DNA of 60,342 nucleotides, filler included. It is 8 parts of 8 records of this genome, joined end to end, with 100 filler letters (N's around TTAATTAATTAA, not from the genome) between each part and the next. Parts side by side here need not be neighbours in the genome. Positions count along the whole stretch, not along the records: positions 50,237 to 60,342 come from SRR31156797_67711; 7 more parts are not named here. One strand, written 5' to 3'. The translations under genes were made by a program, and so were the position numbers. Below are positions 3,614 through 60,342 of this stretch, piece after piece. Numbering within the stretch: position 1 is the first letter of the stretch; every line of letters starts with the position of its first letter. Under the pieces are notes generated by a model. That model had not been told where the DNA came from. It made no database searches and saw nothing but the letters and a program-made list of their open reading frames with translations.

Positions 3614-5023
3614 ATGATGAAAAATATTTTACTTTTTGTTCTGGTGCTTCAATTAATACAATCTCAATTAATTGCATGTACTATTATATTCTCAAATGAT
3701 GGTAAAAATGTATATGTAGGTAATAATGAGGATTTTCTTAATGATATAAAGTCAAAGATATGGTTTGTGCCCGCTACTGCTAAAAAGTATGGAGCTGCCT
3801 ATTGGGGCTTTAATTATTTTCCGTTTAAAGCTGAAAGGATTCCTCAGGGAGGAATGAATGAGTATGGATTGTTTTTCGATAAAACATCGGTTCCTGAGAA
3901 GGCACTCAAGATGGATAAAGATAAACGCAACGCAGGTGCTTTTTATTTAAGTCGGATTTTAGAGCGCTGCAAAACCGTGGATGAGGCCATTGAAATGATT
4001 CAAACGCGAAATTTAAAACATTTCACAAAAGGTCAGATCTTATTAGCCGATAAAACCGGGAATTATGCCATAATTGACAATAATATCATTACAAAAAAGA
4101 CTAAAAATTATGCTGTGGTCACTAATTTCAGGGTTTCTGAACCGGAGTTGGGCGGGTTTCCATCGCAAAAATATAGCAGTGCAGTAAATATGTTTGAAAG
4201 TAATAAAGAAGCTACTGTAGAAAATTTTAAAAGCATATTAAATGAAGTGCACCAAGTAGGATCGAAATACTCAACCATATATTCTCAAATTTGTGATTTG
4301 AAAAATGGTAAAATCAATTTGTATTATTTTCACAACTTTGAGCATAGTAAAACATTTGATTTACTGGAGGAGTTGAAAAAAGGAAAACATGCGTATTACA
4401 TAGCTGATTTGTTTCCCGCGAGAGTATTTCCTATGATTTATGAAACATACTTGTCATCGGGTTTGGATGCAGCACTTTCGAATTTGGATCAGTTTAATAT
4501 TCAGCAATATTGTTTTTCTGAAAGTGAATTGTATTTTTTCGCCCATCATTTGTTTGAACACTTTCTGTATGATAATACAATACAGGTGTGTGATACGATT
4601 TTAACTTATTTTCCCGAATCAGATGAGGCATTATTGCTAAAAGCAAAATGTATGGTTTCTAAGAATGAATTAGAAAAGTCAATACAGTTAGTAAAGCAAT
4701 CATTTCAAATTAATCCTTTTAACTTTTCGGCTGGAAGAATTATCCAGCAGTTAGACAATCCAAAGAAAGATGGTAATACTCATTTCAAATTGAAAGGGTT
4801 TGAGGATGCTACGTTTGTTACTATCGTTATGAGCACAGAAAATTGGGAAGATTTGTACCACATCATGTATCGCGATGGCGATTCCTGGAAATACTCAGTT
4901 GATTTGCCAAAGGGACATTACGAGTACATTTATAAAGTTGATGGCAAATTCGTGTTGGATCCATCCGTTTCGAACACAAAGGTTTATCCTACAACAATTG
5001 TGATGTTACTGGAGAAGGAGTAG
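3614..5023 (+). CDS. Secreted Ntn-hydrolase (choloylglycine hydrolase/C45-like) fused to TPR and a CBM48/AMPK-like domain
   Basis: Signal peptide then nucleophile CTII..GNNED; GGMNEYGL; TNF; STIYSQICDL; C-terminal LPKGHYEYIYKVDGKFVLDP. Confidence 0.75.
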   Translation: MMKNILLFVLVLQLIQSQLIACTIIFSNDGKNVYVGNNEDFLNDIKSKIWFVPATAKKYGAAYWGFNYFPFKAERIPQGGMNEYGLFFDKTSVPEKALKMDKDKRNAGAFYLSRILERCKTVDEAIEMIQTRNLKHFTKGQILLADKTGNYAIIDNNIITKKTKNYAVVTNFRVSEPELGGFPSQKYSSAVNMFESNKEATVENFKSILNEVHQVGSKYSTIYSQICDLKNGKINLYYFHNFEHSKTFDLLEELKKGKHAYYIADLFPARVFPMIYETYLSSGLDAALSNLDQFNIQQYCFSESELYFFAHHLFEHFLYDNTIQVCDTILTYFPESDEALLLKAKCMVSKNELEKSIQLVKQSFQINPFNFSAGRIIQQLDNPKKDGNTHFKLKGFEDATFVTIVMSTENWEDLYHIMYRDGDSWKYSVDLPKGHYEYIYKVDGKFVLDPSVSNTKVYPTTIVMLLEKE

Positions 5024-49531: not shown

Positions 49532-50136
49532 TTACTTGCCTAGGTAGGCGCTGATAACTTCCTGGTTTCCCTTTATTTCCGAAGGCGTGCCGTCGGCCAG
49601 TTTCAGACCGAAGTCCAGGACAACCACCCGGTTGGCAATGTCCATGACCACGCCCATGTCATGTTCGACAATGACGATGGGAATATGCTGTAATTCGTGG
49701 ATGTCTAAAATAAACCGGGCCATGTCTTCCTTCTCCTCAACATTCATCCCGGCCATGGGCTCGTCCAGGAGAAGAAGTTTCGGTTCAAGAGCAATGGCCC
49801 TGCCCAAATCGACCCGTTTCCTCAAGCCGTAGGGGAGAGACTCAACTACCTGGTAGCGAATCTCCTCCATCTCCAGGAGGTCTATAATCTTCTCGATTAT
49901 TATTCTGTTCTGTACTTCTTCTTTTCTCGCTTTTCCCAAAAAGAGCGCCCCCGCAAACGGGCCGTAGTTGATGAACACATGCCGGGCCGCCATCAGGTTG
50001 TCCAAAGCCGTCAGGCCGGTGTAAAGCTCGATGTTTTGAAAGGTCCGGGAAATGCCGAGTTTCGCCCTTTTACTCGGCGACAGCCTGCTAATGTCCTTAT
50101 CATTAAAGATGAGATTTCCCTTGTCATGGTGATAAA
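49532..50136 (-). CDS. livG: LivG-type ABC ATPase (5'-truncated)
   Basis: LPYGLRKRVDLGRA, LLDEPMAGM, VEHDMGVV, AYLG. Confidence 0.9.
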
Positions 50137-50237
50137 NNNNNNNNNNNNNNNNNNNNNNNNNNNNNNNNNNNNNNNNNNNNTTAATTAATTAANNNNNNNN
50201 NNNNNNNNNNNNNNNNNNNNNNNNNNNNNNNNNNNNA

Positions 50238-50750
50238 GTCAAAGAGCCGTCGTCGTCGTTTTCTTCCCATGATTTGAATGATCTCATGCAGGCTGTGAAG
50301 TCCAAACACCGAACCAAAGAGGTTGAGGCCAGGGTTACCAGAGCATTGAAAGATGGTCATAATCTTGAATATCTTCGTCGATGCATCGGGTACGCCAATG
50401 AGAAGAGCAATGGAAGTGATTACAAGGCGTATTTGGGCAAAAGCATTGATCACCCTGAATGGCATGAGGGCTTTGATCCTGATGAGCATATCAAGAAACT
50501 TCAGGCCGATATCGACAAACTAAGGGAACGGCAGGAAGAGCAGCAACTAGAACAAAACAAACTGAGAACGCGTCATGAGAAAATAACCGCCATGATCGAT
50601 GAGGTAGACACCGACGCTTTGGATGCCTTCATAGACGGCCAGGAACTCAACACCGTGGATCGAGGCAGGTTTAAGCGTGGGAAACGGGCAATGTTGCGGA
50701 GGAGGTTTGTGTCTGAATTTGCCGACCGGGGCCGGAAAAAAACGTCATGA
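50238..50750 (+). CDS. C-terminal half of the HTH replication-initiator-like protein that starts at 59850
   Basis: In frame across the junction; DnaD/replisome-organizer-like segment DYKAYLGKSIDHPEW. Confidence 0.75.
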   Translation, partial: VKEPSSSFSSHDLNDLMQAVKSKHRTKEVEARVTRALKDGHNLEYLRRCIGYANEKSNGSDYKAYLGKSIDHPEWHEGFDPDEHIKKLQADIDKLRERQEEQQLEQNKLRTRHEKITAMIDEVDTDALDAFIDGQELNTVDRGRFKRGKRAMLRRRFVSEFADRGRKKTS

Positions 50751-51025
50751 GCCATTCAGACCGAATTATCAGCTTACACACGAATGCACCGGAGGGAAGT
50801 CTTTCCGAGTGGGAAGACGAATTCATAATTGATAGTGAGTTTGAGATACCGAAATACAGTAGCGTGTGTCATCGCTGCGCTCATTTGACAAATGGATATG
50901 AAAGGCGATGCTTGGCGTTTCCTAATGGCATCCCCATGGAAATTTGGATGGGAGAAAATAATCATTCGGAAGTTCATCCAGAGCAAGAGAATGACATTGT
51001 CTTTGAGTCGTTGCTGGATGAATGA
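50747..51025 (+). CDS. Small Cys/His-rich hypothetical protein
   Basis: ATGA overlap with the upstream stop; CHRCAH..CLAFPNGIPMEI..H..QENDIVFE. Confidence 0.7.
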   Translation: MSHSDRIISLHTNAPEGSLSEWEDEFIIDSEFEIPKYSSVCHRCAHLTNGYERRCLAFPNGIPMEIWMGENNHSEVHPEQENDIVFESLLDE

Positions 51026-51333
51026 TCCCCTTTCCCCTGCCCGGTGACGGATCTTGCCTTGTCTGCAAAAACGAAAAAGTTTTCGTATCTGGTAACAAAT
51101 CGTTCAAAAACGGTACCCGAGTTCCGTTTTCACCACCTCGAATCTCGAACCGATTTTCAGGCAAAAAACCGGCAAAAGCGCAGTCAATTGCGCTTTTCTA
51201 CGACATTCGAAGCGCTCAAAACGGTGTTGTTTCCAACCCCAAACGAATAATATTCTGCCTGCACGATCTGTAACCATTGACGTTCAACAGTCTGGAATTA
51301 CACCATAACAACCACACAACGTATCGAACCTTT

Positions 51334-51361
51334 ACGTACGATAAGATGTATTATGTTAACT
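51334..51361 (+). other. dif-like XerC/XerD site 1
   Basis: ACGTACGATAA-GATGTA-TTATGTTAACT versus E. coli dif GGTGCGCATAA-TGTATA-TTATGTTAAAT. Confidence 0.8.
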
Positions 51362-51502
51362 TTTTTGAGGGGTCGGAGCACTAAGGTATCCACCGCATGA
51401 GTATGACAAAACCCATGCCGGGTGGGTGTTTTGATGGAATACACGGATTCCGGAATTTTGATGGGCGCTGGTTGCTGGATATCGAATAGAAACTTTAGAC
51501 GC

Positions 51503-51531
51503 TTGACATAACTTTTGTTGAGTAGTAGACT
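51503..51531 (+). promoter_or_regulatory. Sigma70-type promoter
   Basis: TTGACA-17 bp-TAGACT. Confidence 0.65.
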
Positions 51532-51669
51532 GCTTGCACAAATTGTGAAGCACGAGCCATTGCCTCATCCTTAGGGACTCGCTTTGGCCTAAGCCGACTC
51601 GCTTAAATGGAAAACATCCTTCGACCTCCGCGTAATGGTGAGCATCGTAGGATACGCCAAAAGCACCAT

Positions 51670-51737
51670 AAGGGCCTCATCGGAGAGATAAATCAACGCC
51701 ATAGTTGTTTTGTTTCTCTGATGAGGCCCTTTTTTTT
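51670..51737 (+). terminator. Leader terminator/attenuator before the HTH-primase operon
   Basis: 17-bp stem AAGGGCCTCATCGGAGA/TCTCTGATGAGGCCCTT followed by a T-run. Confidence 0.65.
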
Positions 51738-51758
51738 GTAATTTTTTTGGAGGTATTT

Positions 51759-52001
51759 ATGAGTAGCAATCTGTTGAAAGAACTCTCAATAAAGCAACCG
51801 CACCCTTGCAAAATCCATTTCGAGGGACTCAACAACCAGCCACTTGCCCGAGCACTCGGGATCAGTCCGAACTATTGCTATGACGTTTTGAATGGATCGA
51901 AGAGGCCAGGGCCGGACCTGAATAAACGGATCTATGATCTGGCTGAACGGGTCATGGCTGAGAGAGAGGCGGAAGAGCAGGCCGAATGCGCGCATGCGTA
52001 A
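51759..52001 (+). CDS. Small Cro/Xre-like HTH protein
   Basis: GGAGG RBS; NQPLARALGISPNYCYDVLNGSKRPG. Confidence 0.75.
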   Translation: MSSNLLKELSIKQPHPCKIHFEGLNNQPLARALGISPNYCYDVLNGSKRPGPDLNKRIYDLAERVMAEREAEEQAECAHA

Positions 52002-52080
52002 TTTTCAAACTCCAGAAACAGCAAAGCCCAACGATCTTTTAGGCGGGGATTAGTCGGGCTTTGCAAAGGAAAATTTATAG

Positions 52081-54798
52081 ATGGATACTACCAAAACTGA
52101 GACTCAAAAGCAATCAAAAGTTAAACTTTCACCGGATGCTATCAGCCGCCTCTATGCTGCATGCAATGACATACTCACGTATGATGACTTAGATCTACGG
52201 GGACAGAAGAATGGTAGAGAATTTCAAAAAATCGACTGCATTCATTGTGGTGGAAAGGGATGCTGTTTTACTGATCCGAACAAAAAGCAGATCACATGTC
52301 GGAAGTGCAACCGAACCGAAGATTACGCCGGATATTATAAATATAAGCATGGTTTCAAATCATTTGAGATGTTCAAGGCAATCGTTCCGGTATTGTTCAA
52401 CGATGAGATGGAGGCCGTCAGGTATCAGGGTGCTAAAGAGGATTTTCTGAATTTCAATACCGCCCCTAAACAATCTACCGGGCAGGAAGAAAGAGGTCCC
52501 GATCCGGCAACCATCGACCCGGAGACCGCTAAGGCCATCAAGAAGAACCAGGACATTTTCAATCGGTTCTGCAACGGCCAGGTAAAACACAATCAAATTC
52601 TAAACCTATTCAAACTCCGAGGCATCCCTGAAGAGCATGTCAGGCCGGAACTCGGAGATAGCATCCGTTGGAAAAGCAATCACGGCGACCCGAAAAAACC
52701 GGATGAGCAGCGTGACGTGGTGGTGATAGCCTGTCATTCCCTGCCCGGTAAAGAACACACTTCACAGCAGTACTTCACGCCGGACAATTCATATTTCCCT
52801 GGGACAAAGACCCGTAGAAAATCTTCACCTGCCATCGGACATGGATTTCATTTTGCTGGCGCTCCCCTGGATGCTCCTACCACAAACAAGCTGTACGTCA
52901 CTGAGAGCATCATGAATGCGTTTTCACTGCTCCCCTATGTGGATACCTCCACCTCTTGCGTTGTCTCTATTCTAAGCAGTAGTGAGGCCCGGAAGAAGGC
53001 GGAGATGCTGAAGCCGTGGGTTAAGGATTTCAAGGTGGTGGTCTCATGTGGTGACAATGACAAGGCCGGTAATGGAATGGATAACACCATTGCCAAAGTC
53101 CTAAAAGATACCGTCGCTGTATGGGGGCTTAATTGGGGGCGAGACGACCCGGATGATACCAATAAGCTCCAACAGGCCGGGAGTTGTGATCGACTGCGAG
53201 AGCTGGTGAAAAAGCCGATGCCTATTAAGATCAAGGATGATGATCCGCCTATAAAAACCACCAAAAATGATGAAGAGTGGGAAGACCCGCAGGCCATAGA
53301 AGAAGAGTTACTACCCGTTGACAGTCTGCCAGATGACGCCATTCCAACGCCGTATAAGGCATGGGTTAGGGACATATCCCACAGGTGGGCTGTTCCTGCC
53401 GATTTTCCGTTCATCTCAACTCTTATTGTCACAAGTGCCATTATCGGCACCGGAGCAGTCATCAAACCAAAAAAACGTGACGACTGGACAGTTGTACCGA
53501 ATCTATGGGGTGGGATCATTGGAGATCCATCTGTTATGAAATCGCCGGTTTTAAATGAGGTCATTAATAAATCTATGGGCCGGTTGGAAGCAACTGCAAG
53601 GCAAAAACTCCATGATGACCTGGACGAGTTTAAAGCTGATAAATTTATTTTTGATGAGACCGTCAAGGCGAAAGAGAACGATATCAAAAAGGCCATCAAA
53701 AATGGAGGGACAACTGATGAGCTTAAATCTGAATTAAAAGATCTGAATCGGCACGTTATGGATAAACCGACCGAGCGAAGATACAAAGTCAACGACTGCA
53801 CCATTGAAAAATATGTTGAACTGAACAAGGAAAACCCCAGGGGGCTCCTTTATTTTCGAGATGAGTTGATTGGTTTTTTTAAGCGATTAGACAAAGAGGG
53901 AAATGAGGCTGATAGGGCGTTATGTATGGAGGCATGGAACGGCCAGGGCAACTATACACAAGACCGGATAGGTAGGGGCAGTATTCGAGCAAAAAACCTT
54001 TGCATGTCCCTAATTGGGGGGATTCAGCCGGATAAAATCATTGGATATCTCAATGATGCCATGAATGGTGGAAATGATGGTTTTGTTCAACGACTACAGA
54101 TGATGGTTTATCCAGATAGAAAGAAGTGGGAATTCATAGACCAATATCCAGACACCGACGCCAAAAACACTTTTTACACCGTGATTGAGGTGCTGGCTGA
54201 AATGCGTGATTCTGACTTTATAGAAGCTGGCGCAGATATGCCGGATGATGAAGATTTTCCACATTTCAAGTTTGATGAACCATCCTACCAACTTTTCAAA
54301 GCCTGGATGTCCGACCTTCAACAAAAAATTGAAAACGTTGATGAGCATCAAATCATTCGGGAACATCTCAGTAAATATAAATCCCTAATGCCATCGTTGG
54401 CGCTTATTTACCATTTGATCGAAGTTGCATCTGGTGTGAGTGGTAGTGAGTCTATCCCGGAGCATTGCACTAAACAGGCCATAGCATGCGTCAAATACCT
54501 TGAATCCCACGCAAGGCGTATCTATGGCATGGCTATTGATTCGAGTAGCACGGGTGCAGTGGCATTATCTCAAAAGATACTTGCGGGAAAGGTGAAGAGT
54601 CCGTTCACCGCCAGGGATATCTACATCTCCGGTTGGAGCAAATTGAACAACTCAGATGATGCTCAAAAGGCTATTGATTATTTGGATGGTAAGAACTGGA
54701 TCAAAGAGACCGAACAGAGAAACCCACTGAAAGGTGGTAGGCCGAAAACCGAGTATATTATCAATCCGAAAGTGTTTGATATCCAAAAAGCACAATAG
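52081..54798 (+). CDS. Zn-finger / Toprim primase fused to a DUF3987 (YfjI-family) helicase-like domain
   Basis: CIHC..CRKC; VTES..GDNDKAG; VPNLWGGIIGDPSVMKS, RDEL, DRIGRG, GGIQP, DGFVQR; C-terminal wHTH GGRPKTEYIINP. Confidence 0.85.
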   Translation: MDTTKTETQKQSKVKLSPDAISRLYAACNDILTYDDLDLRGQKNGREFQKIDCIHCGGKGCCFTDPNKKQITCRKCNRTEDYAGYYKYKHGFKSFEMFKAIVPVLFNDEMEAVRYQGAKEDFLNFNTAPKQSTGQEERGPDPATIDPETAKAIKKNQDIFNRFCNGQVKHNQILNLFKLRGIPEEHVRPELGDSIRWKSNHGDPKKPDEQRDVVVIACHSLPGKEHTSQQYFTPDNSYFPGTKTRRKSSPAIGHGFHFAGAPLDAPTTNKLYVTESIMNAFSLLPYVDTSTSCVVSILSSSEARKKAEMLKPWVKDFKVVVSCGDNDKAGNGMDNTIAKVLKDTVAVWGLNWGRDDPDDTNKLQQAGSCDRLRELVKKPMPIKIKDDDPPIKTTKNDEEWEDPQAIEEELLPVDSLPDDAIPTPYKAWVRDISHRWAVPADFPFISTLIVTSAIIGTGAVIKPKKRDDWTVVPNLWGGIIGDPSVMKSPVLNEVINKSMGRLEATARQKLHDDLDEFKADKFIFDETVKAKENDIKKAIKNGGTTDELKSELKDLNRHVMDKPTERRYKVNDCTIEKYVELNKENPRGLLYFRDELIGFFKRLDKEGNEADRALCMEAWNGQGNYTQDRIGRGSIRAKNLCMSLIGGIQPDKIIGYLNDAMNGGNDGFVQRLQMMVYPDRKKWEFIDQYPDTDAKNTFYTVIEVLAEMRDSDFIEAGADMPDDEDFPHFKFDEPSYQLFKAWMSDLQQKIENVDEHQIIREHLSKYKSLMPSLALIYHLIEVASGVSGSESIPEHCTKQAIACVKYLESHARRIYGMAIDSSSTGAVALSQKILAGKVKSPFTARDIYISGWSKLNNSDDAQKAIDYLDGKNWIKETEQRNPLKGGRPKTEYIINPKVFDIQKAQ

Positions 54799-54824
54799 AG
54801 ATTGTTTTTTTACCGATAATACTT

Positions 54825-55091
54825 TTACCGGGCAGAAGGAAAGGGTTTTGATGGTTTTGATGGTGCTGTTCCTGGGCATATCTCTATTTTTTTTTGATGG
54901 CTTTGAGGTACCCCTCTTAATATCCATTTTATATATATATACATATATATATAAATGAACTATATAATACGAAATGTGGTGTGAATTGATAAAAAAAAAT
55001 AGGATATCCCTAAAAGGGGCACCATCAAAACCTACAAAACCCCCAAGCCCATTAAATGAGCCAGAATAAACTCTTCCCTTCTGCCCGGTAA
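54825..55091. promoter_or_regulatory. Putative replication origin: nested inverted repeats and iterons around an AT-rich core
   Basis: TTACCGGGCAGAAGG 54825-54839 with its complement at 55077-55091; GGTTTTGATGGTGC 54853-54866 with its complement at 55019-55032; repeated TTTTGATGG; (TA)n core. Confidence 0.65.
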
Positions 55092-55361
55092 TAATCCTGC
55101 CGGGTGGAGAGGTGCCGTTGTCCCGATCTGACCCACCACAACATATAGTGTTGTCAGGAAAGTATACCTTGTTGGTTGGTTTGGAAATAATGACGATCAT
55201 TTCAAATTTGTCTAAAAGTTGTTGAACACGTTTTGAGATAAAACTCTTGCGTTTTGTTCATTACTACGGCTATTATATATAGAAAAGTAATGGTTTTTGT
55301 ATAGTAATAAATCCTGAGATTGGCATAATTTCGGGAAATTCGATCTGGGGCGGGGGAATCA

Positions 55362-55613
55362 ATGGCAACAAAAATTAGAAAACACCGGTTGATGAGATTG
55401 ACGGATCTGCGGCGGTTCATGGCTGCTAAGGTCAATCAACTCAATGCCGGTGAGATCGATACGGACACCGCCAGGGCGTTTGGGTATTTGTGTTCATGCC
55501 TGAAAGACATCATCAAGGAGTCCGACATTGAGAGCCGGGTCAAGGAACTTGAAACGCAACTGGCAGAACGGGATGCAGCTACGACAGGGAATGGACGGAG
55601 GACATATCGATGA
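55362..55613 (+). CDS. Small hypothetical protein (helical, coiled-coil C-terminus)
   Basis: GGGGG RBS; ATGA-coupled to the next gene. Confidence 0.7.
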   Translation: MATKIRKHRLMRLTDLRRFMAAKVNQLNAGEIDTDTARAFGYLCSCLKDIIKESDIESRVKELETQLAERDAATTGNGRRTYR

Positions 55614-55891
55614 ACAGGTCATTGGAAAAACGAGTATCTCGGTTGGAGCTGGAACTGAACCCACCGCCACCGGATCAGCAGATTGTGATCACCGCCAATT
55701 TTGGCCGGAAAGATGCGCCGGTGAAATCATGGAGCGGTGTGGAGCGGTTGCCAGATGAGGCGCCGGATGAGCATCGGGAACGTGCTGTTGATACCCTGGT
55801 GGAGCGATCCCGACAGCGGGGCCATGGGGTGACACTGATCGTTGCGGAACCGGACAATGAAATGAATAATGGAGAGATAAAAAATGATTGA
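55610..55891 (+). CDS. Small hypothetical protein, paralog of 56581-56898
   Basis: SLEKRVSRLE ... ERLPDEAPDEHRERA. Confidence 0.65.
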   Translation: MNRSLEKRVSRLELELNPPPPDQQIVITANFGRKDAPVKSWSGVERLPDEAPDEHRERAVDTLVERSRQRGHGVTLIVAEPDNEMNNGEIKND

Positions 55892-56579
55892 TAGAATTAA
55901 AAATGTAGCATCTCAATACCGAAAACAGTTGGGGGAAATTAGTCCCGACCTGAAAAATGAAGTGCAGAATCAAAAAAAAGCTGAGGTCCACAAAGCTCTC
56001 AAATCTGGTGTGGAGGCATTACGGGTCGAGGCAGACACATTGGTTCGAGATTTCCGGCAGGTTCGGGAGCGGAACCTTGACCGCCGGTATCTGGTGGCGA
56101 CCAGGGCAACCAACGGGATCAAAGATCTGACCCTGGGTGAATCTCAGTTGATCAACATGATTGATAAGCTGCCCCCCTCTCTTCTGCCCGGTCTGGCATC
56201 GGATGACAAAGTTACTGGGTATCATCCCCTTGTCCGATTGAGCCTATTGAACCGTGCTGAAGGGATGACAAATCCGGTCGATGGAGTCAAGGTGGGTGGA
56301 TCTGCCGCCTATGCTGAGGCCGTTGATGGTCAGAAGGTGGGGCATGCCATTGTTGATTCTATCCTAAAATCCGAGTCGGTCAATATCGATGGGTTGCGTT
56401 CCGAGGCTGCTAAAATTTCCGAGACGTGTTTAGCTATGGCTGATCTCATGGATGCCTCCCAGCAGTCGAACCGAGGCTATCAGAAAATGTATTCAAAGTA
56501 TGCGGAAGAGGTGATCAATGACACCCAGGACGCCATAGAATCGTTTCAGAATGCGTTTCAGCCAAAACAGGTGGGTTGA
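55884..56579 (+). CDS. Hypothetical protein
   Basis: GGAG RBS; overlapping operon structure. Confidence 0.7.
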   Translation: MIDRIKNVASQYRKQLGEISPDLKNEVQNQKKAEVHKALKSGVEALRVEADTLVRDFRQVRERNLDRRYLVATRATNGIKDLTLGESQLINMIDKLPPSLLPGLASDDKVTGYHPLVRLSLLNRAEGMTNPVDGVKVGGSAAYAEAVDGQKVGHAIVDSILKSESVNIDGLRSEAAKISETCLAMADLMDASQQSNRGYQKMYSKYAEEVINDTQDAIESFQNAFQPKQVG

Positions 56580-56580
56580 C

Positions 56581-56898
56581 ATGGGTAATCTGCAAAAGCG
56601 CATAGAACGGTTAGAAAAGCACATTGTGATCGATGATGATCAACCCGCATGTATTGTCATCAGCACCGTGGATGCCCGGAGGGGCGCACCGGAGCCACCG
56701 GATGATGTGGATGATTATCATGTCCTCCGCACTGATCGTGGTCGAACGTATGAGCGTGGGAAAGATGAGGCGCCGGAAGACTTCAAATATCGTGCTGCCG
56801 ATGCGGAACGTGCGGTCATGCAGCCGGGGGCCGTGCCGGTATTTTTCGGGGAGAGATCCACGGATTCAGAAAATCAGAGCGTTGTTTATAACGAATAA
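56581..56898 (+). CDS. Small hypothetical protein, paralog of 55610-55891
   Basis: NLQKRIERLE ... ERGKDEAPEDFKYRA. Confidence 0.65.
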   Translation: MGNLQKRIERLEKHIVIDDDQPACIVISTVDARRGAPEPPDDVDDYHVLRTDRGRTYERGKDEAPEDFKYRAADAERAVMQPGAVPVFFGERSTDSENQSVVYNE

Positions 56899-56982
56899 TT
56901 GAGATGTTCAGGAATGAGCATGTTACACACTAGAGTTACAAAAAACCTGAAAACCCCCGTCAATAGGGCGTCTTCAGGTTTT

Positions 56983-57010
56983 GGGTACGATAATATACAT
57001 TATGTTAACT
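56983..57010 (+). other. dif-like XerC/XerD site 2
   Basis: GGGTACGATAA-TATACA-TTATGTTAACT; same orientation as site 1. Confidence 0.82.
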
Positions 57011-57352
57011 TTATGAGTGTGTCCAATTCAAGTATCTGAAATAACATAGAAAAGTGTCAAATCCACCATGTTGCAATGTAGTATTGGATTTCGACTCTGT
57101 TTATAAATGTATCGGTATTTTGTGACATTCCCGAGATAAATACCGATGCCCCACCACGAATATCGAATGTGGGAATCACCGGCGATTGTGCATTAAAAAA
57201 TAAAAAAAAATACAGGAAACGGGATGGCTGGTGATTCCCTCCCCTTTTTTAAACCGTATCAAAAAGCATTGCCTAAAAGCCCCTCCATCAGCCGTTCGGC
57301 ACCTGCCCCATATCATAGCATTCGGATAGAAAACACCTCTTAAATCAGAGGC

Positions 57353-57402
57353 TTGACACCACCCATAGATTTGTGTATTATATCGTTATAAACAACGATA
57401 AT
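57353..57402 (+). promoter_or_regulatory. Sigma70 promoter with an overlapping operator
   Basis: TTGACA(57353)-17 bp-TATTAT(57376), then inverted repeat TATCGTT-N6-AACGATA. Confidence 0.7.
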
Positions 57403-57417
57403 CACATGGGGGATGTT

Positions 57418-58233
57418 ATGGCAGCCAAAAGACTGGATATCACCGGAGCGGAGTACAGGCATCGAGTCAGGGAACAGCAAAAAGCCCGGTTCAAAAGGCA
57501 TCAAGAGAAAATGAAATCCGATGGGTTCAAGATGACATCGGTGTTCATGAGTGAGGGGTTGAGATCTGAGATTGACCGGATCATGAAAACCGATGGCGTC
57601 ACCAAATGGCAGGCCATGGAGCGGATCTACCAAGAGTACTTAAATAACGTTAGAAATAACGATAATGGCAAAAGAGAGATCCATCGAATATACCCAATTC
57701 CTGATGCCGTCATTGATGCAATCCCTAAAGAGTACATGGGAGATGGAGTCAAAAACATTGTCCATAGCGCTCTTATTTTCCACACACAACGTGCTGTGAC
57801 CGACGCCCTGCGTTCAGTGTACCGAAATAATCAATGCACCGGTATCGGCAAATTCATAGAGTTGCTGAAAAAGTCGTTGAGGGTGGATACCGAGCAGGAA
57901 CGAAAAAAACTTACTCCGCCGGAAGAGTACCCCAATCAGCAGCCGCTTTTGTTCGATGATGAGCCGAAACACAACCGCGTTTGCGGTGGGCCAACAGATC
58001 TGTCATTCATCGACCCGTGTGAGGGTATGACCAGGGCCGAACGCCGGGAGTACATTGATAAATTCATCATGGATCGATTGGAGGTTGCCGGGCAGGGTGG
58101 GAAAATGACGTACCAGCAGGTGTGCGAGGCGCTGGAATATGCCGGTATCAAAACCCCGAGGGGTAATGATAAATGGGCGATTGGTAGCGTCAACACCGCA
58201 TTCAGACGGATCATGAAAAACCGGGAGGAATGA
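57418..58233 (+). CDS. DNA-binding protein with an RHH-like N-terminus and a recombinase-domain-like C-terminal HTH
   Basis: MTSVFMSEGLRSEID; TYQQVCEALEYAGIKTPRGNDKWAIGSV; no catalytic serine-recombinase domain seen. Confidence 0.65.
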   Translation: MAAKRLDITGAEYRHRVREQQKARFKRHQEKMKSDGFKMTSVFMSEGLRSEIDRIMKTDGVTKWQAMERIYQEYLNNVRNNDNGKREIHRIYPIPDAVIDAIPKEYMGDGVKNIVHSALIFHTQRAVTDALRSVYRNNQCTGIGKFIELLKKSLRVDTEQERKKLTPPEEYPNQQPLLFDDEPKHNRVCGGPTDLSFIDPCEGMTRAERREYIDKFIMDRLEVAGQGGKMTYQQVCEALEYAGIKTPRGNDKWAIGSVNTAFRRIMKNREE

Positions 58234-58271
58234 TCATGTAACCATGGCGCTGGCTGATTCAATATGTTGGT

Positions 58272-58627
58272 GTCTGACCCCTGGGCGGGTGGGGAAAATC
58301 TTCAAATGTGCGCCAAGCGCACATTTAGAAAAGTCTGACCCCTGGGCGGGAATGGGCTGTTTACCGAGTAAACTTATTAACCGTTGGTAAACTTCTGCCC
58401 CACGCGGGCGGGTGGATGAAAATGTCAACTTGTCGCGACGTCGCGACATTTTAAAAGTCTGACCCATGCGGATGCGGTGCAAGCAAAGTGTTTTTTTGAA
58501 TTTTTAGACTCCATAAAAAAGGCGTCAATTTTCACGATGTCGTGAGGAATTAACAGTCTAACCCGTGGGCGGGTGGGGGGAAATGGTAGATTTCTACCAT
58601 TTTGGTCAGATGCCATGTCTGACCCGT
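58272..58627 (+). repeat. Non-CRISPR repeat-spacer array: six degenerate GTCTGACCCNTGGGCGGGTGG repeats with palindrome-centred spacers
   Basis: Repeats start at 58272, 58333, 58393, 58457, 58556 and 58617 (last one truncated). Confidence 0.8.
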
Positions 58628-58860
58628 CATTGGTGGCTTGGAGATTGGTGGAATGCCTGTAAGTGGGGGGATGATAGGCGGAAAGAGATTTGTAAGCAGA
58701 TTGGTGTGGAATACGATACTGCTAAAGATTGTGGTTGGGTTGCAAGAAACTTTAAATTGTCTTTACGTAAAGACAATTTAACATTCAGCCACCACAAAGA
58801 AGTCTGCCAAATAAATGACTCTGCCACCAAATGTCAACTTCTCGACTGGTGCCTATCTAG
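58628..58860 (+). pseudogene. Internal fragment of an LmbU-like HTH gene
   Basis: WWLGDW..IGVEYDTAKDCGWVARNFKLSLRKDNLTFSHHKEV..LLDW; begins right after repeat 6 without its own start. Confidence 0.6.
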
Positions 58861-59047
58861 TGCCTACCTGGGAAACCTTCCTCCCTGCCCGGTGATCAAT
58901 CTCATTTTTCTCTTGACCACGACCCCACTTTCATTCTATCCAAAAAGAGCCGTGGCAAAATCCACGGTGTCGGTTTGACAGCCGATAAGTTCGGCGCAGG
59001 TGAGCGCATTCAATCCATCACCACCTGTGTATCTATACGCCGAAAAC

Positions 59048-59118
59048 GGGCAGTATAGGTGGGAGACTTTCGGGTCTGCCGGTTCCGAACTCCGGTCTGT
59101 CAACCCACCTTGCTGTCC
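59048..59118 (+). ncRNA. c4-type antisense RNA (P1 C4 / P4 CI family)
   Basis: Cloverleaf closed by GGGCAG..AGGTGGG/CCCACCT.GCTGTCC; hairpin AGACTTTCGGGTCT; b' CCGAACT and a' CTGTCAA have complementary targets on both sides. Confidence 0.85.
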
Positions 59119-59173
59119 TTTTCTATTTTGACAGGTAGAAAGGGCGTAACCCCTTAAGTTCGGAGCACCCACC

Positions 59174-59596
59174 ATGCAAAACGAAACCATCATGAACACC
59201 ATTCCCCAGCCGTTACCACGGAACTATGATCCCAGAGACAAAATTGTACAGGATCTGTCGGTACGCCATTCAAAACTATATTTTTACGTTTCAGTTTTAG
59301 GCACTGAAACCCCCATCGATACGGTTCAATTGGATTTATTCGATGACGTCCTATCCTATGAAGTTGAAAAATTAGAAGGGCTTTGCCGACTGCACCTTGA
59401 GACCGATGAGGGGCGCTCAACGATCCTCGGAGATATCATGCTGAGTCAGATAAAATCATTTGCAGATCGGTTAAATGAAATGTCATTTCATGTTGGGAGA
59501 AATATTGGTGATATTGAGTTGACATGCGCCTATCTTCACGCCAGAAGCTTCGATCCGGGCACCGTATTTGATGCAGAGTTGAAGCCTGTTCAATAA
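59174..59596 (+). CDS. Hypothetical protein under c4 control
   Basis: RBS GGAG overlaps the b2 target; no family recognised. Confidence 0.7.
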   Translation: MQNETIMNTIPQPLPRNYDPRDKIVQDLSVRHSKLYFYVSVLGTETPIDTVQLDLFDDVLSYEVEKLEGLCRLHLETDEGRSTILGDIMLSQIKSFADRLNEMSFHVGRNIGDIELTCAYLHARSFDPGTVFDAELKPVQ

Positions 59597-59679
59597 TGAG
59601 ATCGCTTGGAGCGATGGCGCAGGAAAAATAAATAGTCCTTGACGATATCGTCTGAATATCGCTTTTATGACGAAGTGAA

Positions 59680-59765
59680 AATAAAAAAACCCCGTTGATG
59701 CGACGAACATCAACAGGGTTTAGAAATTGGTATGGAGCGTTCATGCAGGAACACTCACCGCCACC
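59680..59765 (-). ncRNA. Candidate counter-transcribed copy-control RNA
   Basis: Minus-strand TTGAAT(59800-59795)-17 bp-TATCCT(59777-59772); hairpin 59687-59721 followed by a U-run. Confidence 0.55.
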
Positions 59766-59849
59766 GAGTGAAGGATAAGACAATCCTGATTTAGATTCAA
59801 GAGTTTTATCCGTTTTTCTGCCAGCGCTCCCAAAACTAAGGGAGTTCTC

Positions 59850-60342
59850 ATGAGTACCATACGTGTATCCAAGTCCGATAATTTCAGCATCATTTCTAAC
59901 CATCATCTCCGTAATAAAAATCTATCTCTGAAGGCGGTTGGGCTTTTAACCATACTGTTATCGCTCCCCGATAATTGGAATGCCAATGTCAATCACCTTG
60001 TCACTATCTGCCGGGACGGAAAGAAGGCCATTTATTCAGCCATAAAAGAGTTAAAAGAGGCGGGATACATTGAACATGTGACTATCAGGGATGCCAATGC
60101 AAAGATTTTAAAATGGGAGTACATTGTCTATGAGCACCCCATTGAAAAGGCCGTGAACAGTGAAGAAAAGCTACTTTCCCAAAAGGGACAAGTAGCTAAG
60201 GTACAAGTAGCTAAGGGCGATGGAATAATAAAGACTAAAAGTCCTTTACGAAAAACTAATAGTATTAAAAACGACGACGTACCGGCACCACTCACACCTC
60301 CACCTGACCCGATACCGGAAGTCAAAGAGCCGTCGTCGTCGT
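59850..60342 (+). CDS. N-terminal half of a 327-aa HTH replication-initiator / replisome-organizer-like protein (continues at 50260)
   Basis: Manual translation MSTIRVSKSDNFSIISNHHLRNKNLSLKAVGLLTILLSLPDNW..DGKKAIYSAIKELKEAGYI..WEYIVYEHP; missing from the ORF track. Confidence 0.8.
   Translation, partial: MSTIRVSKSDNFSIISNHHLRNKNLSLKAVGLLTILLSLPDNWNANVNHLVTICRDGKKAIYSAIKELKEAGYIEHVTIRDANAKILKWEYIVYEHPIEKAVNSEEKLLSQKGQVAKVQVAKGDGIIKTKSPLRKTNSIKNDDVPAPLTPPPDPIPEVKEPSSS

Follow-up and report, generated by a model that had tools for sequence, protein, structure and literature searches.

The repeat–spacer array studied here probably consists of inverted, head-to-tail, diverged partial copies of a palindrome-bearing HTH segment, lying beside a shortened LmbU-like gene. 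Our best overall explanation, about which our confidence is evenly divided, is that this stack of duplicated LmbU-gene segments would act as a cluster of operator-like sites. The array is found in the last contig (50237–60342) of the window, i.e., of the whole 60,342-nt stretch of DNA analysed, in which N-spacers link unrelated contigs. It is real and far beyond chance, comprising five G-rich boxes and a 9-nt stub, each followed by a dyad. It is located between a gene for an RHH+HTH regulator and the 5′-shortened LmbU-family regulator gene, after which comes a c4 antisense-RNA module. The flanks named in the initial annotation, an HTH gene and the c4 region, were correct, with the LmbU-like gene intervening before c4.

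A 21-nt box consensus, searched with up to three mismatches, matched at 58272, 58333 and 58556, where 0 matches were expected (100 shuffles). The 9-mer GTCTGACCC, which forms the start of the box, was found exactly at 58272, 58333, 58457 and 58617 alone in the 60-kb window, and with one mismatch at 58556 (box R5). The boxes are 64–91% alike overall. Six G-rich repeats had been described at the outset; five boxes stand, with GTCTGACCC confined to the array, but R3 and R4 are degenerate, and the sixth repeat comprises only the first 9–10 nt of a box, the DNA homology to the gene of a relative beginning at 58628. The spacings, previously given as 61, 60, 64, 99 and 61, are 61, 61, 63, 99 and 61 when measured from start to start.

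The five dyads of the initial annotation were all found where it had placed them. Dyads 1, 3 and 5 are perfect with 9–10-bp stems and share a common AAATG...CATTT frame, and dyads 2 and 4 have 6-bp stems only. The 10,083-bp contig contains 13 perfect palindromes (stem of at least 7, loop of at most 8), five of which fall within 58304–58781. Two palindromes had been overlooked, one at 58604–58624 and one with 15+15 arms at 58752–58781. The spacers are not all unrelated, as had been supposed: spacers 1/3 and 3/4 align over their length (0/500 shuffles each), and spacer 3 has paralogues in spacers 1 and 4b. The remaining comparisons among the ten spacer pairs were not significant, apart from reverse-strand echoes of 1/3 and 3/4, and spacers 2 and 5 aligned to no other spacer. 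The half-sites of dyad 2, TTTAC/GTAAA, resemble the core of the 58752 palindrome; the similarity of dyad 2 to the LmbU-like gene was not significant. Dyad 5 overlaps a candidate in-frame ATG of the LmbU-like ORF at 58583.

Boxes 1, 2 and 5 are 87–91% alike and their dyads are wholly different, a combination that plain duplication followed by drift does not explain.

Table 1. Features of the array and of the element that carries it (positions along the window).
Feature	Position	Strand	Basis or remark
Separate contig, plasmid- or satellite-like circle	50237–60342		N-spacers; 23-bp terminal overlap, giving 10,083 bp
Putative regulator, 271 aa, with CopG/RepB-like ribbon-helix-helix N-terminus and serine-recombinase 'Recombinase'-domain-like HTH C-terminus	57418–58233	+	Remote homologues, profile matches
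Box R1, reference copy	58272–58294	+	Consensus match
Dyad 1, 10+3+10	58304–58326		Perfect-palindrome scan; spacer 1 paralogous to spacer 3
Box R2, 87% identical to R1	58333–58355	+	Consensus match
Dyad 2, 6+3+6	58359–58373		Read from sequence
Box R3, degenerate, with indel	58394–58418	+	Repeat families D4/D12, family profile alignment
Inverted copy of LmbU-like recognition-helix segment (S-R-R-R-D), contains dyad 3	58421–58467	-	Smith-Waterman, family profile
Dyad 3, 9+0+9, CG-rich	58431–58448		Within the inverted gene copy 58421–58467
Box R4, 70% identical to R1	58457–58479	+	Repeat search, alignment to L075
Inverted scrap homologous to the small ORF between c4 and the LmbU-like gene in L075	58478–58525	-	Alignment score 34
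Dyad 4, 6+2+6, in spacer 4b	58532–58545		Read from sequence; spacers 3 and 4 align
Box R5, 91% identical to R1	58556–58578	+	Consensus match
Dyad 5, 10+2+10	58581–58602		Palindrome scan
Stub of sixth box, 9-mer only	58617–58625	+	At junction with direct-orientation gene fragment; right arm of hairpin 58604–58624
LmbU-family DNA-binding-domain gene (by similarity), 5′-shortened relative to L075	58628–58860	+	NF038070, 52 bits (52.1), E 7e-14
c4 target-like leader (a1/b1)	58936–58987	+	RF03163, 28 bits, E 2.7e-4, under gathering score
c4-type antisense RNA	59043–59123	+	RF01695, 41.3 bits (gathering score 45), E 9.8e-6
b2/a2 target sites	59128–59165	+	7- and 8-nt complementarity to c4 59097–59103 and 59084–59091; repeat family D8

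The assignment of the array to copies of a gene segment is based above all on its third unit. Reverse-complemented, spacer 3 together with the initial 11 nt of box 4 aligned to positions 4227–4278 of the viral contig L075 with a Smith-Waterman score of 50. Shuffled sequences gave 16.0±2.6, 0/300 reaching 50, and 0/1073 real 250-nt windows reached this score, the background maximum being 33. A family profile built without the window's own row had unit 3, on the minus strand, as its only match (QTFKMSRRRDKLTFSS, E 0.0018, 878 residues). From the profile alignment, the G-rich 3′ half of box 3 is the reverse complement of the F-S-H-H codons of the family, its minus strand encoding T-F-S-S. The 5′ half of box 4 is the reverse complement of the W-V-x-R codons, and the first 11 nt of this box extend the alignment to the L075 gene at W-V-S-R. 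This order in boxes 3 and 4 is expected where inverted copies of a segment join head to tail. Six viral contigs contain an exact match to the 18-nt dyad of spacer 3, and in L095 it lies inside a family gene at S-R-R-R-D.

The 99-nt unit 4 contains a scrap of another L075 gene (Table 1), whose score compares with 18.9±3.1 for shuffled sequences (0/200) and was reached by 0/1073 background windows (maximum 32). This scrap and the spacer 3 copy are colinear on the minus strand and lack the ~270 nt that separate them in the L075 order. For units 1, 2 and 5, a tandem-segment model gave no significant direct homology (42 vs 36.2±4.9, a score reached by 22/172 controls), and their origin is therefore argued from the shared boxes and from the paralogy of spacers 1 and 3. 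The earlier suggestion that the dyads derive from phage regulator genes accordingly holds for spacer 3, which copies a segment of an LmbU-like gene, and is plausible for other units, although it was not borne out by a significant match of units 1, 2 and 5. When the gene homology was extended leftwards into units 5/6 from a right anchor, the score was zero, and units 1 and 5 matched the 5′ end of the L075 gene weakly (8/300 and 28/300 shuffles, respectively). With unit 1 aligned to the beginning of the small ORF of L075, 49/1073 background windows reached the score, tblastn of N-terminal peptides returned noise, and BLAST of the L075 record against the array gave no match.

The ORF to the right of the array starts at 58565, 58583 or 58610 and ends at 58978. 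L075 is its nearest relative at the DNA level: BLAST aligned the region 58628–58860 to L075 4121–4353 without gaps over 233 columns, with 78% DNA identity. The homology to the L075 gene ends right after the 9-nt stub, and this location of the box stub, precisely where the array joins the direct gene copy, was counted in favour of the segment-stack explanation. Residues 22–86 of the ORF align to positions 30–95 of the NF038070 model. The phage relatives matched this model with 83–124 bits and the window ORF with 52, all under the curated cut-off of 125 bits; as judged from these scores, the ORF shows significant similarity to the LmbU family, which is not certified membership. Six protein homologues of the ORF were found. 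The domain was not found in Pfam and PHROGs, and a search of the PDB by sequence returned no relative. A C-terminal MT-A70 methyltransferase was present in 4/7 full-length relatives tested. The central arginine of the S-x-R-x-D/E motif was invariant in 22 aligned sequences. According to the text of PMC6510168, LmbU of Streptomyces lincolnensis is a homodimeric regulator that binds the palindrome CGCCGGCG; its HTH spans residues 80–102 and ends in R101 and R102, of which R101 is essential for DNA binding. The S-R-R-R motif may correspond to R101/R102 of LmbU, going by the description in that text (PMC6510168).

The LmbU-like ORF carries the perfect 15+15 palindrome 58752–58781 on its codons S-L-R-K-D, a symmetry that was reached in 0/300 cases under a synonymous-codon null. 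Similar palindromes were found throughout the family. In a first set of 20 members (the window and L075–L093), the region between the V-A and H-H motifs contained a perfect dyad with a stem of at least 8 in 16/20 members; 15 of these dyads had no spacer, and the sequence was different in every member. Compared with synonymous-codon resampling, in which the mean best stem was 4.0–4.8, the dyad had p≤0.01 in 15/20. A wider set, overlapping the first 20, was drawn from 62 of 63 loci, and 56 distinct members were left after identical, short and motif-less rows had been dropped. Here, a stem of at least 8 was found in 32/56, 29 of the 32 dyads were spacer-free, all 32 sequences were different, and p≤0.01 was obtained in 19/56 under a stricter null that resampled synonymous codons over the whole region. 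The remaining 24/56 members had no dyad, and most of the 24 also lacked the S-R-R-R motif. In nearly all family dyads, the centre falls one base inside a shared arginine codon. In 168,932 nt of related loci plus the plasmid, 22 perfect palindromes (stem of at least 9, loop of at most 3) were counted, and 14 of them lie at this in-gene site.

The residues flanking the invariant arginine obey the complement rule of the palindrome (R/R, I/I, L/K, L/N, F/N, E/S, Q/C, V/T), so the symmetry of the DNA overrides the conservation of the residues. The outer residues of the dyad region are S with D/E, or C with Q. Based on these data, we suggest that the in-gene palindrome is the predicted cognate operator of the encoded domain. 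We describe a widespread phage gene family in which a member-specific perfect palindrome lies on the codons of a DNA-binding arginine motif, under a symmetry constraint strong enough to force mirror-paired amino-acid changes. We did not find this arrangement in print: a literature search for the dyad sequence, and for LmbU together with phage or methyltransferase, returned nothing relevant (for the latter, among the titles listed). If the palindrome is the cognate operator, the family would offer a natural, readable code between recognition-helix residues and half-site bases, and it would show how mobile elements diversify the specificity of their regulators and avoid cross-talk. If true, the array would be the first case of such modules, each both site and reading head, being stockpiled.

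Among known systems, LmbU-family regulators and their palindromic operator come closest. The neighbouring ORF and the phage relatives match NF038070, and CGCCGGCG, the published LmbU site, lies inside 9/32 family dyads; this site is described in PMC6510168 as a short CG-rich palindrome bound via an HTH that ends in two arginines. Dyad 3 (9+0+9) and the in-gene 15+15 palindrome are of the zero-spacer form of the LmbU operator, and dyads 1, 2, 4 and 5 are not. However, the published sites, as presented in PMC6510168, are located in target-gene promoters of actinomycetes, whereas here the palindrome lies inside the coding sequence of the regulator, on the arginine codons. In addition, the palindrome varies here by member and belongs to phage genes that are often fused to MT-A70, and in this element it is multiplied as gene-fragment copies, in a family whose scores are all under the curated cut-off. 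Binding sites inside the gene of their own binder are known from parS within spo0J/parB and from the lambda origin iterons within gene O. As in these cases, the site presumed to be cognate lies within the gene of its binder and differs between lineages. The difference is that the site predicted here falls on the codons of the DNA-contacting motif itself, and consequently site and residues would change together under the complement rule.

We suggest the following pathway for the formation of the array. One ~61-bp segment of an LmbU-family gene would have been copied in part about five times, the diverged copies being stacked head to tail in inverted orientation. The copied segment would be the arginine-rich end of the HTH region, which in most phage relatives carries the member-specific, spacer-free palindrome, and each spacer dyad would represent this variable palindrome of the family. 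Each G-rich box would be the joint of two copies, with the reverse complement of the W-V-x-R codons followed by that of the F-S-H-H codons. The stack may have arisen by local duplication and recombination at a hairpin-prone site, and the dyads may have been kept symmetric as operator-like sites or hairpins for LmbU-like dimers, either from the element itself or from co-resident phages. The dyads could then gate or titrate entry into the LmbU-like ORF, the c4 module and the rep module downstream. To the resulting function, that of a cluster of operator-like or hairpin sites ahead of the control region of the LmbU-like ORF, c4 and rep, we give an even chance. A role of the array dyads as decoys or sensors is also conceivable. 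Because dyads 1, 2, 4 and 5 have centres of 2–3 nt and the family sites almost always have none, the array dyads may be bound differently from the family sites. A more far-reaching version of this function seems unlikely to us, namely that in this phage and plasmid branch of the LmbU family the module is self-referential: the DNA encoding the arginine motif would also be the binding site of the protein itself, open to mirror-symmetric change only, and the array would be a shelf of alternative modules, used to switch the specificity of the neighbouring gene by gene conversion or as a multi-phage sensor/decoy ahead of the c4/rep control region.

The main rival of the segment stack with selected sites holds that the array is functionless debris, produced by slippage and illegitimate recombination at a hairpin-prone segment and including scraps of a second, inverted c4-type module. 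The palindromes would then stay perfect only through hairpin-templated repair (template switching), in which one arm is copied onto the other. We consider this rather unlikely, although it has several points in its favour: scraps of two neighbouring L075-type genes are colinear and inverted with sequence missing between them, the dyad centres are irregular (0, 2, 2, 3 and 3 nt), the adjoining 79-codon gene piece is 5′-shortened, and unit 4 weakly matches the c4 leader of the element itself (score 29; 1/200 shuffles, 15/1073 background windows). On the other hand, three perfect 9–10-bp stems of different sequence stand beside boxes that differ by 9–13%, which calls for a symmetrising force, and in the coding genes of the family this force is selection that changes conserved residues in mirror pairs. 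Moreover, the 10-kb element is otherwise tightly packed with genes. It is also possible, though quite improbable, that the inverted partial copies form a library of silent cassettes that donate by gene conversion to the neighbouring LmbU-like gene, one conversion event swapping the recognition-helix residues together with the palindrome by which they are encoded. Silent-cassette arrays serve antigenic variation in the vls system of Borrelia, with units of several hundred nt. As there, the copies are partial, promoterless and inverted, have conserved flanks and variable cores, and adjoin a gene of their family; in the family, the residues beside the central arginine also change in complement-rule pairs together with the dyad. 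However, the units here are of ~61 nt, most copies have frame-breaking lengths, and their 2–3-nt centres would not give family-type sites. The neighbouring gene is itself shortened, and in the single contig of the sole holder run no alternative joint or indel was reported within the array, so that neither population variation nor conversion is seen in it.

Two further readings concern the boxes rather than the dyads. The boxes could serve replication, copy control or partition as iterons or centromere-like sites, recognised by Rep or by the RHH+HTH protein, with the dyads being incidental. Direct repeats adjoining the gene of an RHH-type DNA-binding protein on a small replicon, as well as an AT-rich stretch in unit 4, are in line with this, but we hold it to be very improbable: the spacings show no helical phasing, a scan of 10 ORFs brought up no partition NTPase, the AT-richest stretch of the contig lies elsewhere (54.88–55.02 kb, just after the primase gene), the regulator gene has its own, different palindrome in its promoter region (57381–57400), and the boxes are explained by gene flanks. 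Finally, the array could be what is left of an orphan CRISPR mini-array, or it could mimic a CRISPR repeat as a decoy against a type III system, in the manner of an RNA anti-CRISPR. The period of 61–63 nt would suit repeats of 23–30 nt with spacers of 31–38 nt, the final repeat is truncated, and both spacers for which homology was found lie antisense to phage genes. At 15/16 positions, the opening 16 nt of the box agree with the beginning of a bona fide 36-nt type III repeat; this repeat belongs to L071 and L068, which a metagenome scan with a box-derived pattern brought up and which are true type III arrays with RT-Cas1 and RAMP genes. However, the pattern behind this match was built from the box itself, the other 20 nt of the repeat are unmatched, and in contigs of high GC content this word is frequent in REP-like inverted repeats, which make up most of the other pattern matches. 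The box gave no Rfam CRISPR-DR match at E≤10, and the statement of the initial annotation that no cas genes are seen was confirmed for the 10 ORFs scanned. Near-identical direct repeats were not found (87%, 70% and 91% to box 1), R3 is related only via an indel, and the spacers are neither unrelated nor bounded by the repeats, as the homology to the source gene crosses the spacer–box borders. The CRISPR reading is, in our opinion, scarcely credible. The likeness to CRISPR mini-arrays and to the solitary-repeat RNA anti-CRISPRs treated in PMC10651486 consists of the repeat–spacer look, the period of ~61 nt, the mobile element and the lack of an adjacent cas gene; the degenerate repeats, the palindromic and paralogous spacers and the homology across their borders are the differences from what PMC10651486 describes. 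The capture system proposed initially is not supported, since the box is best explained as gene flanks, the homology enters boxes 3 and 4, and spacers 1, 3 and 4b are paralogous. A false lead is thereby removed: the array is not a CRISPR without cas genes, and not a new machine for capture either.

A decayed c4 gene was also considered as the source of the array, and no significant alignment and no C4 match within the array were obtained. G-quadruplex/R-loop, terminator, oriT, Chi, dif and BIME were considered from the sequence and dropped for want of a test or a fit; the terminator scan called none of the dyads.

To assess the distribution of the array, several collections were searched. BLASTN had been proposed as a way of locating the spacers inside phage genes, and the dyads matched nothing in the phage and plasmid collections. 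The array at E≤10 gave matches there to the AT-rich part of unit 4 only, at chance level, and blastn of 57300–59700 against phages and plasmids gave no match. No related array, in which a gain or loss of spacers might be traced as the initial annotation suggested, was found in the collections scanned. No relatives were found in viral contigs by scans seeded with the 271-aa protein, the 140-aa ORF and the primase, or in metagenome contigs by the primase alignment. The box pattern gave one single match in viral contigs and 59 single matches in genome contigs, with no arrays, and the loci of the 19 gene relatives contained no similar array. The full 271-aa family is too diverse to seed a scan, and a narrower alignment of it found nothing. 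The 42-nt palindrome region of L096 had no match in the phage collection.

An identical 10,106-bp Logan contig was present at a depth of 350 in the sole holder run among public runs. Among these runs, the element was not found outside the source sample, and no RNA run was listed as a holder. The genes of the element include Rep (HTH_36), which wraps round the contig ends, a Toprim+DUF3987 primase-helicase and several orphan ORFs; no integrase family was matched among the 10 ORFs scanned. The gene directly upstream of the array encodes the 271-aa protein, for which a word-seeded search returned no relatives and an exhaustive search returned 45 remote homologues. PF07508 was matched by 10/22 aligned members of this family and RepB-RCR_reg by 3, and the family profile touches CopG (E 0.005). 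Because of these matches, we read the protein as a putative RHH+HTH regulator and not as a recombinase. The gene had been called recombinase-like, which is appropriate for the HTH but not for the protein as a whole, which has an RHH N-terminus and is without a catalytic domain. Its Atlas look-up gave unnamed clusters only, with scores <0.9.

The c4 module to the right of the LmbU-like gene includes target pairs on both sides of the c4-type RNA. In the leader, complementarity to c4 was read from the sequence at UUGACAG (58975–58981) and AGUUCGG (58988–58994), and downstream the a2 target overlaps the GGAG ribosome-binding site of a 140-aa ORF (59174–59596). The relative L075, with a C4 match of 60 bits (RF01695), has the order promoter, a1/b1, C4, small ORF and a 417-aa member of the LmbU-like family. 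In the immI module of phage P1, the order is c4-icd-ant, and the LmbU-like gene of L075 occupies what we take to be the position of ant. The element resembles immI in having a c4-like RNA with target pairs up- and downstream, the downstream pair lying over a ribosome-binding site. It differs in that both Rfam scores of the window (RF01695 and RF03163) are under the gathering scores, the LmbU-like gene fragment lies upstream of c4, and the 140-aa ORF, followed by rep, lies downstream.

The spacer 3 dyad, a perfect 18-nt palindrome of the array of G-rich boxes and dyads, was found inside a 26-bp perfect palindrome that is identical in L096 and L098, two Mu-like viral contigs. The 26-bp palindrome sits within two unrelated ORFs, one for a 301-aa protein and the other for an XRE-type repressor, and both translate it in the frame that gives N-V-A-T-S-R-H-L. 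In the examined parts of these two contigs, no LmbU-like gene was found. Of seven full-length relatives tested from the family of phage LmbU-like regulators, four carry the LmbU-like domain at the N-terminus of an MT-A70 DNA methyltransferase; the genes named for this observation are those of L076, L083, L085 and L087. Some of the in-gene dyads of the family contain GANTC or GATC words.

In the 10-kb element carrying the array, the AT content is maximal (up to 87%) directly 3′ of the primase-helicase gene, where a 13+2+13 palindrome of TA-run type is also located. These features and its position make this region more likely than the array to be the replication origin. Two other kinds of site, a 33-nt sequence with copies in two intergenic regions (85% identity) and a 7+6+7 palindrome overlapping the promoter-like site of the 271-aa regulator gene, are probably operators for the element's own regulators. 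With up to one mismatch allowed, the two strands of the whole window together contain 12 copies of the 10-mer CCTGCCCGGT, versus 2.8 expected; 10 of these copies fall in the element, including one just upstream of the c4 leader. This 10-mer could be a dispersed asymmetric operator of a repressor.

Three records (3, 5 and 6) of X1, the sequencing run of the source sample, match the element. They show that other contigs of this sample have a primase that has diverged, the 33-nt repeat of the intergenic regions and a variant of the c4 3′ end, and therefore related elements with other c4 specificities seem to coexist there.

Coordinates of the features in the element and in the compared contigs
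Feature	Location
CCTGCCCGGT copies in the element	51036, 52477, 52740, 54827, 55080, 55096, 56183, 57889, 58087, 58884
AT maximum, candidate origin	54880-55016
33-nt intergenic repeat	51331-51363, 56980-57012
7+6+7 palindrome	57381-57400
Matches to records 3, 5 and 6 of run X1	52261-52884, 56982-57012, 59092-59135
26-bp palindrome	L096:3578-3603, L098:3032-3057
CRISPR arrays, 36-nt repeat	L071:5291-6473, L068:9700-10650

It should be noted that the window is made up of at least eight contigs with a GC content ranging from 26% to 58%; the joints at 6493-50236 consist of 44 N, 12 nt and 44 N, and genes are cut near the junctions, e.g., that of an ABC ATPase ending at 50005.

Genuine CRISPR arrays were present in two metagenome contigs, adjoining an RT-Cas1 fusion in L071 and RAMP proteins in L068; in L068, two repeat variants occur within one array. 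Intergenic inverted repeats of the 11-mer GGGTCAGACCC / GGGTCTGACCC, often with TGGGCG on the 3′ side, were found in L061-L066, L069, L073 and L074, all metagenome contigs of high GC content (65–72%), and look like a REP-like family. L072 contains a 29-nt direct repeat in two copies, separated by a 32-nt spacer.
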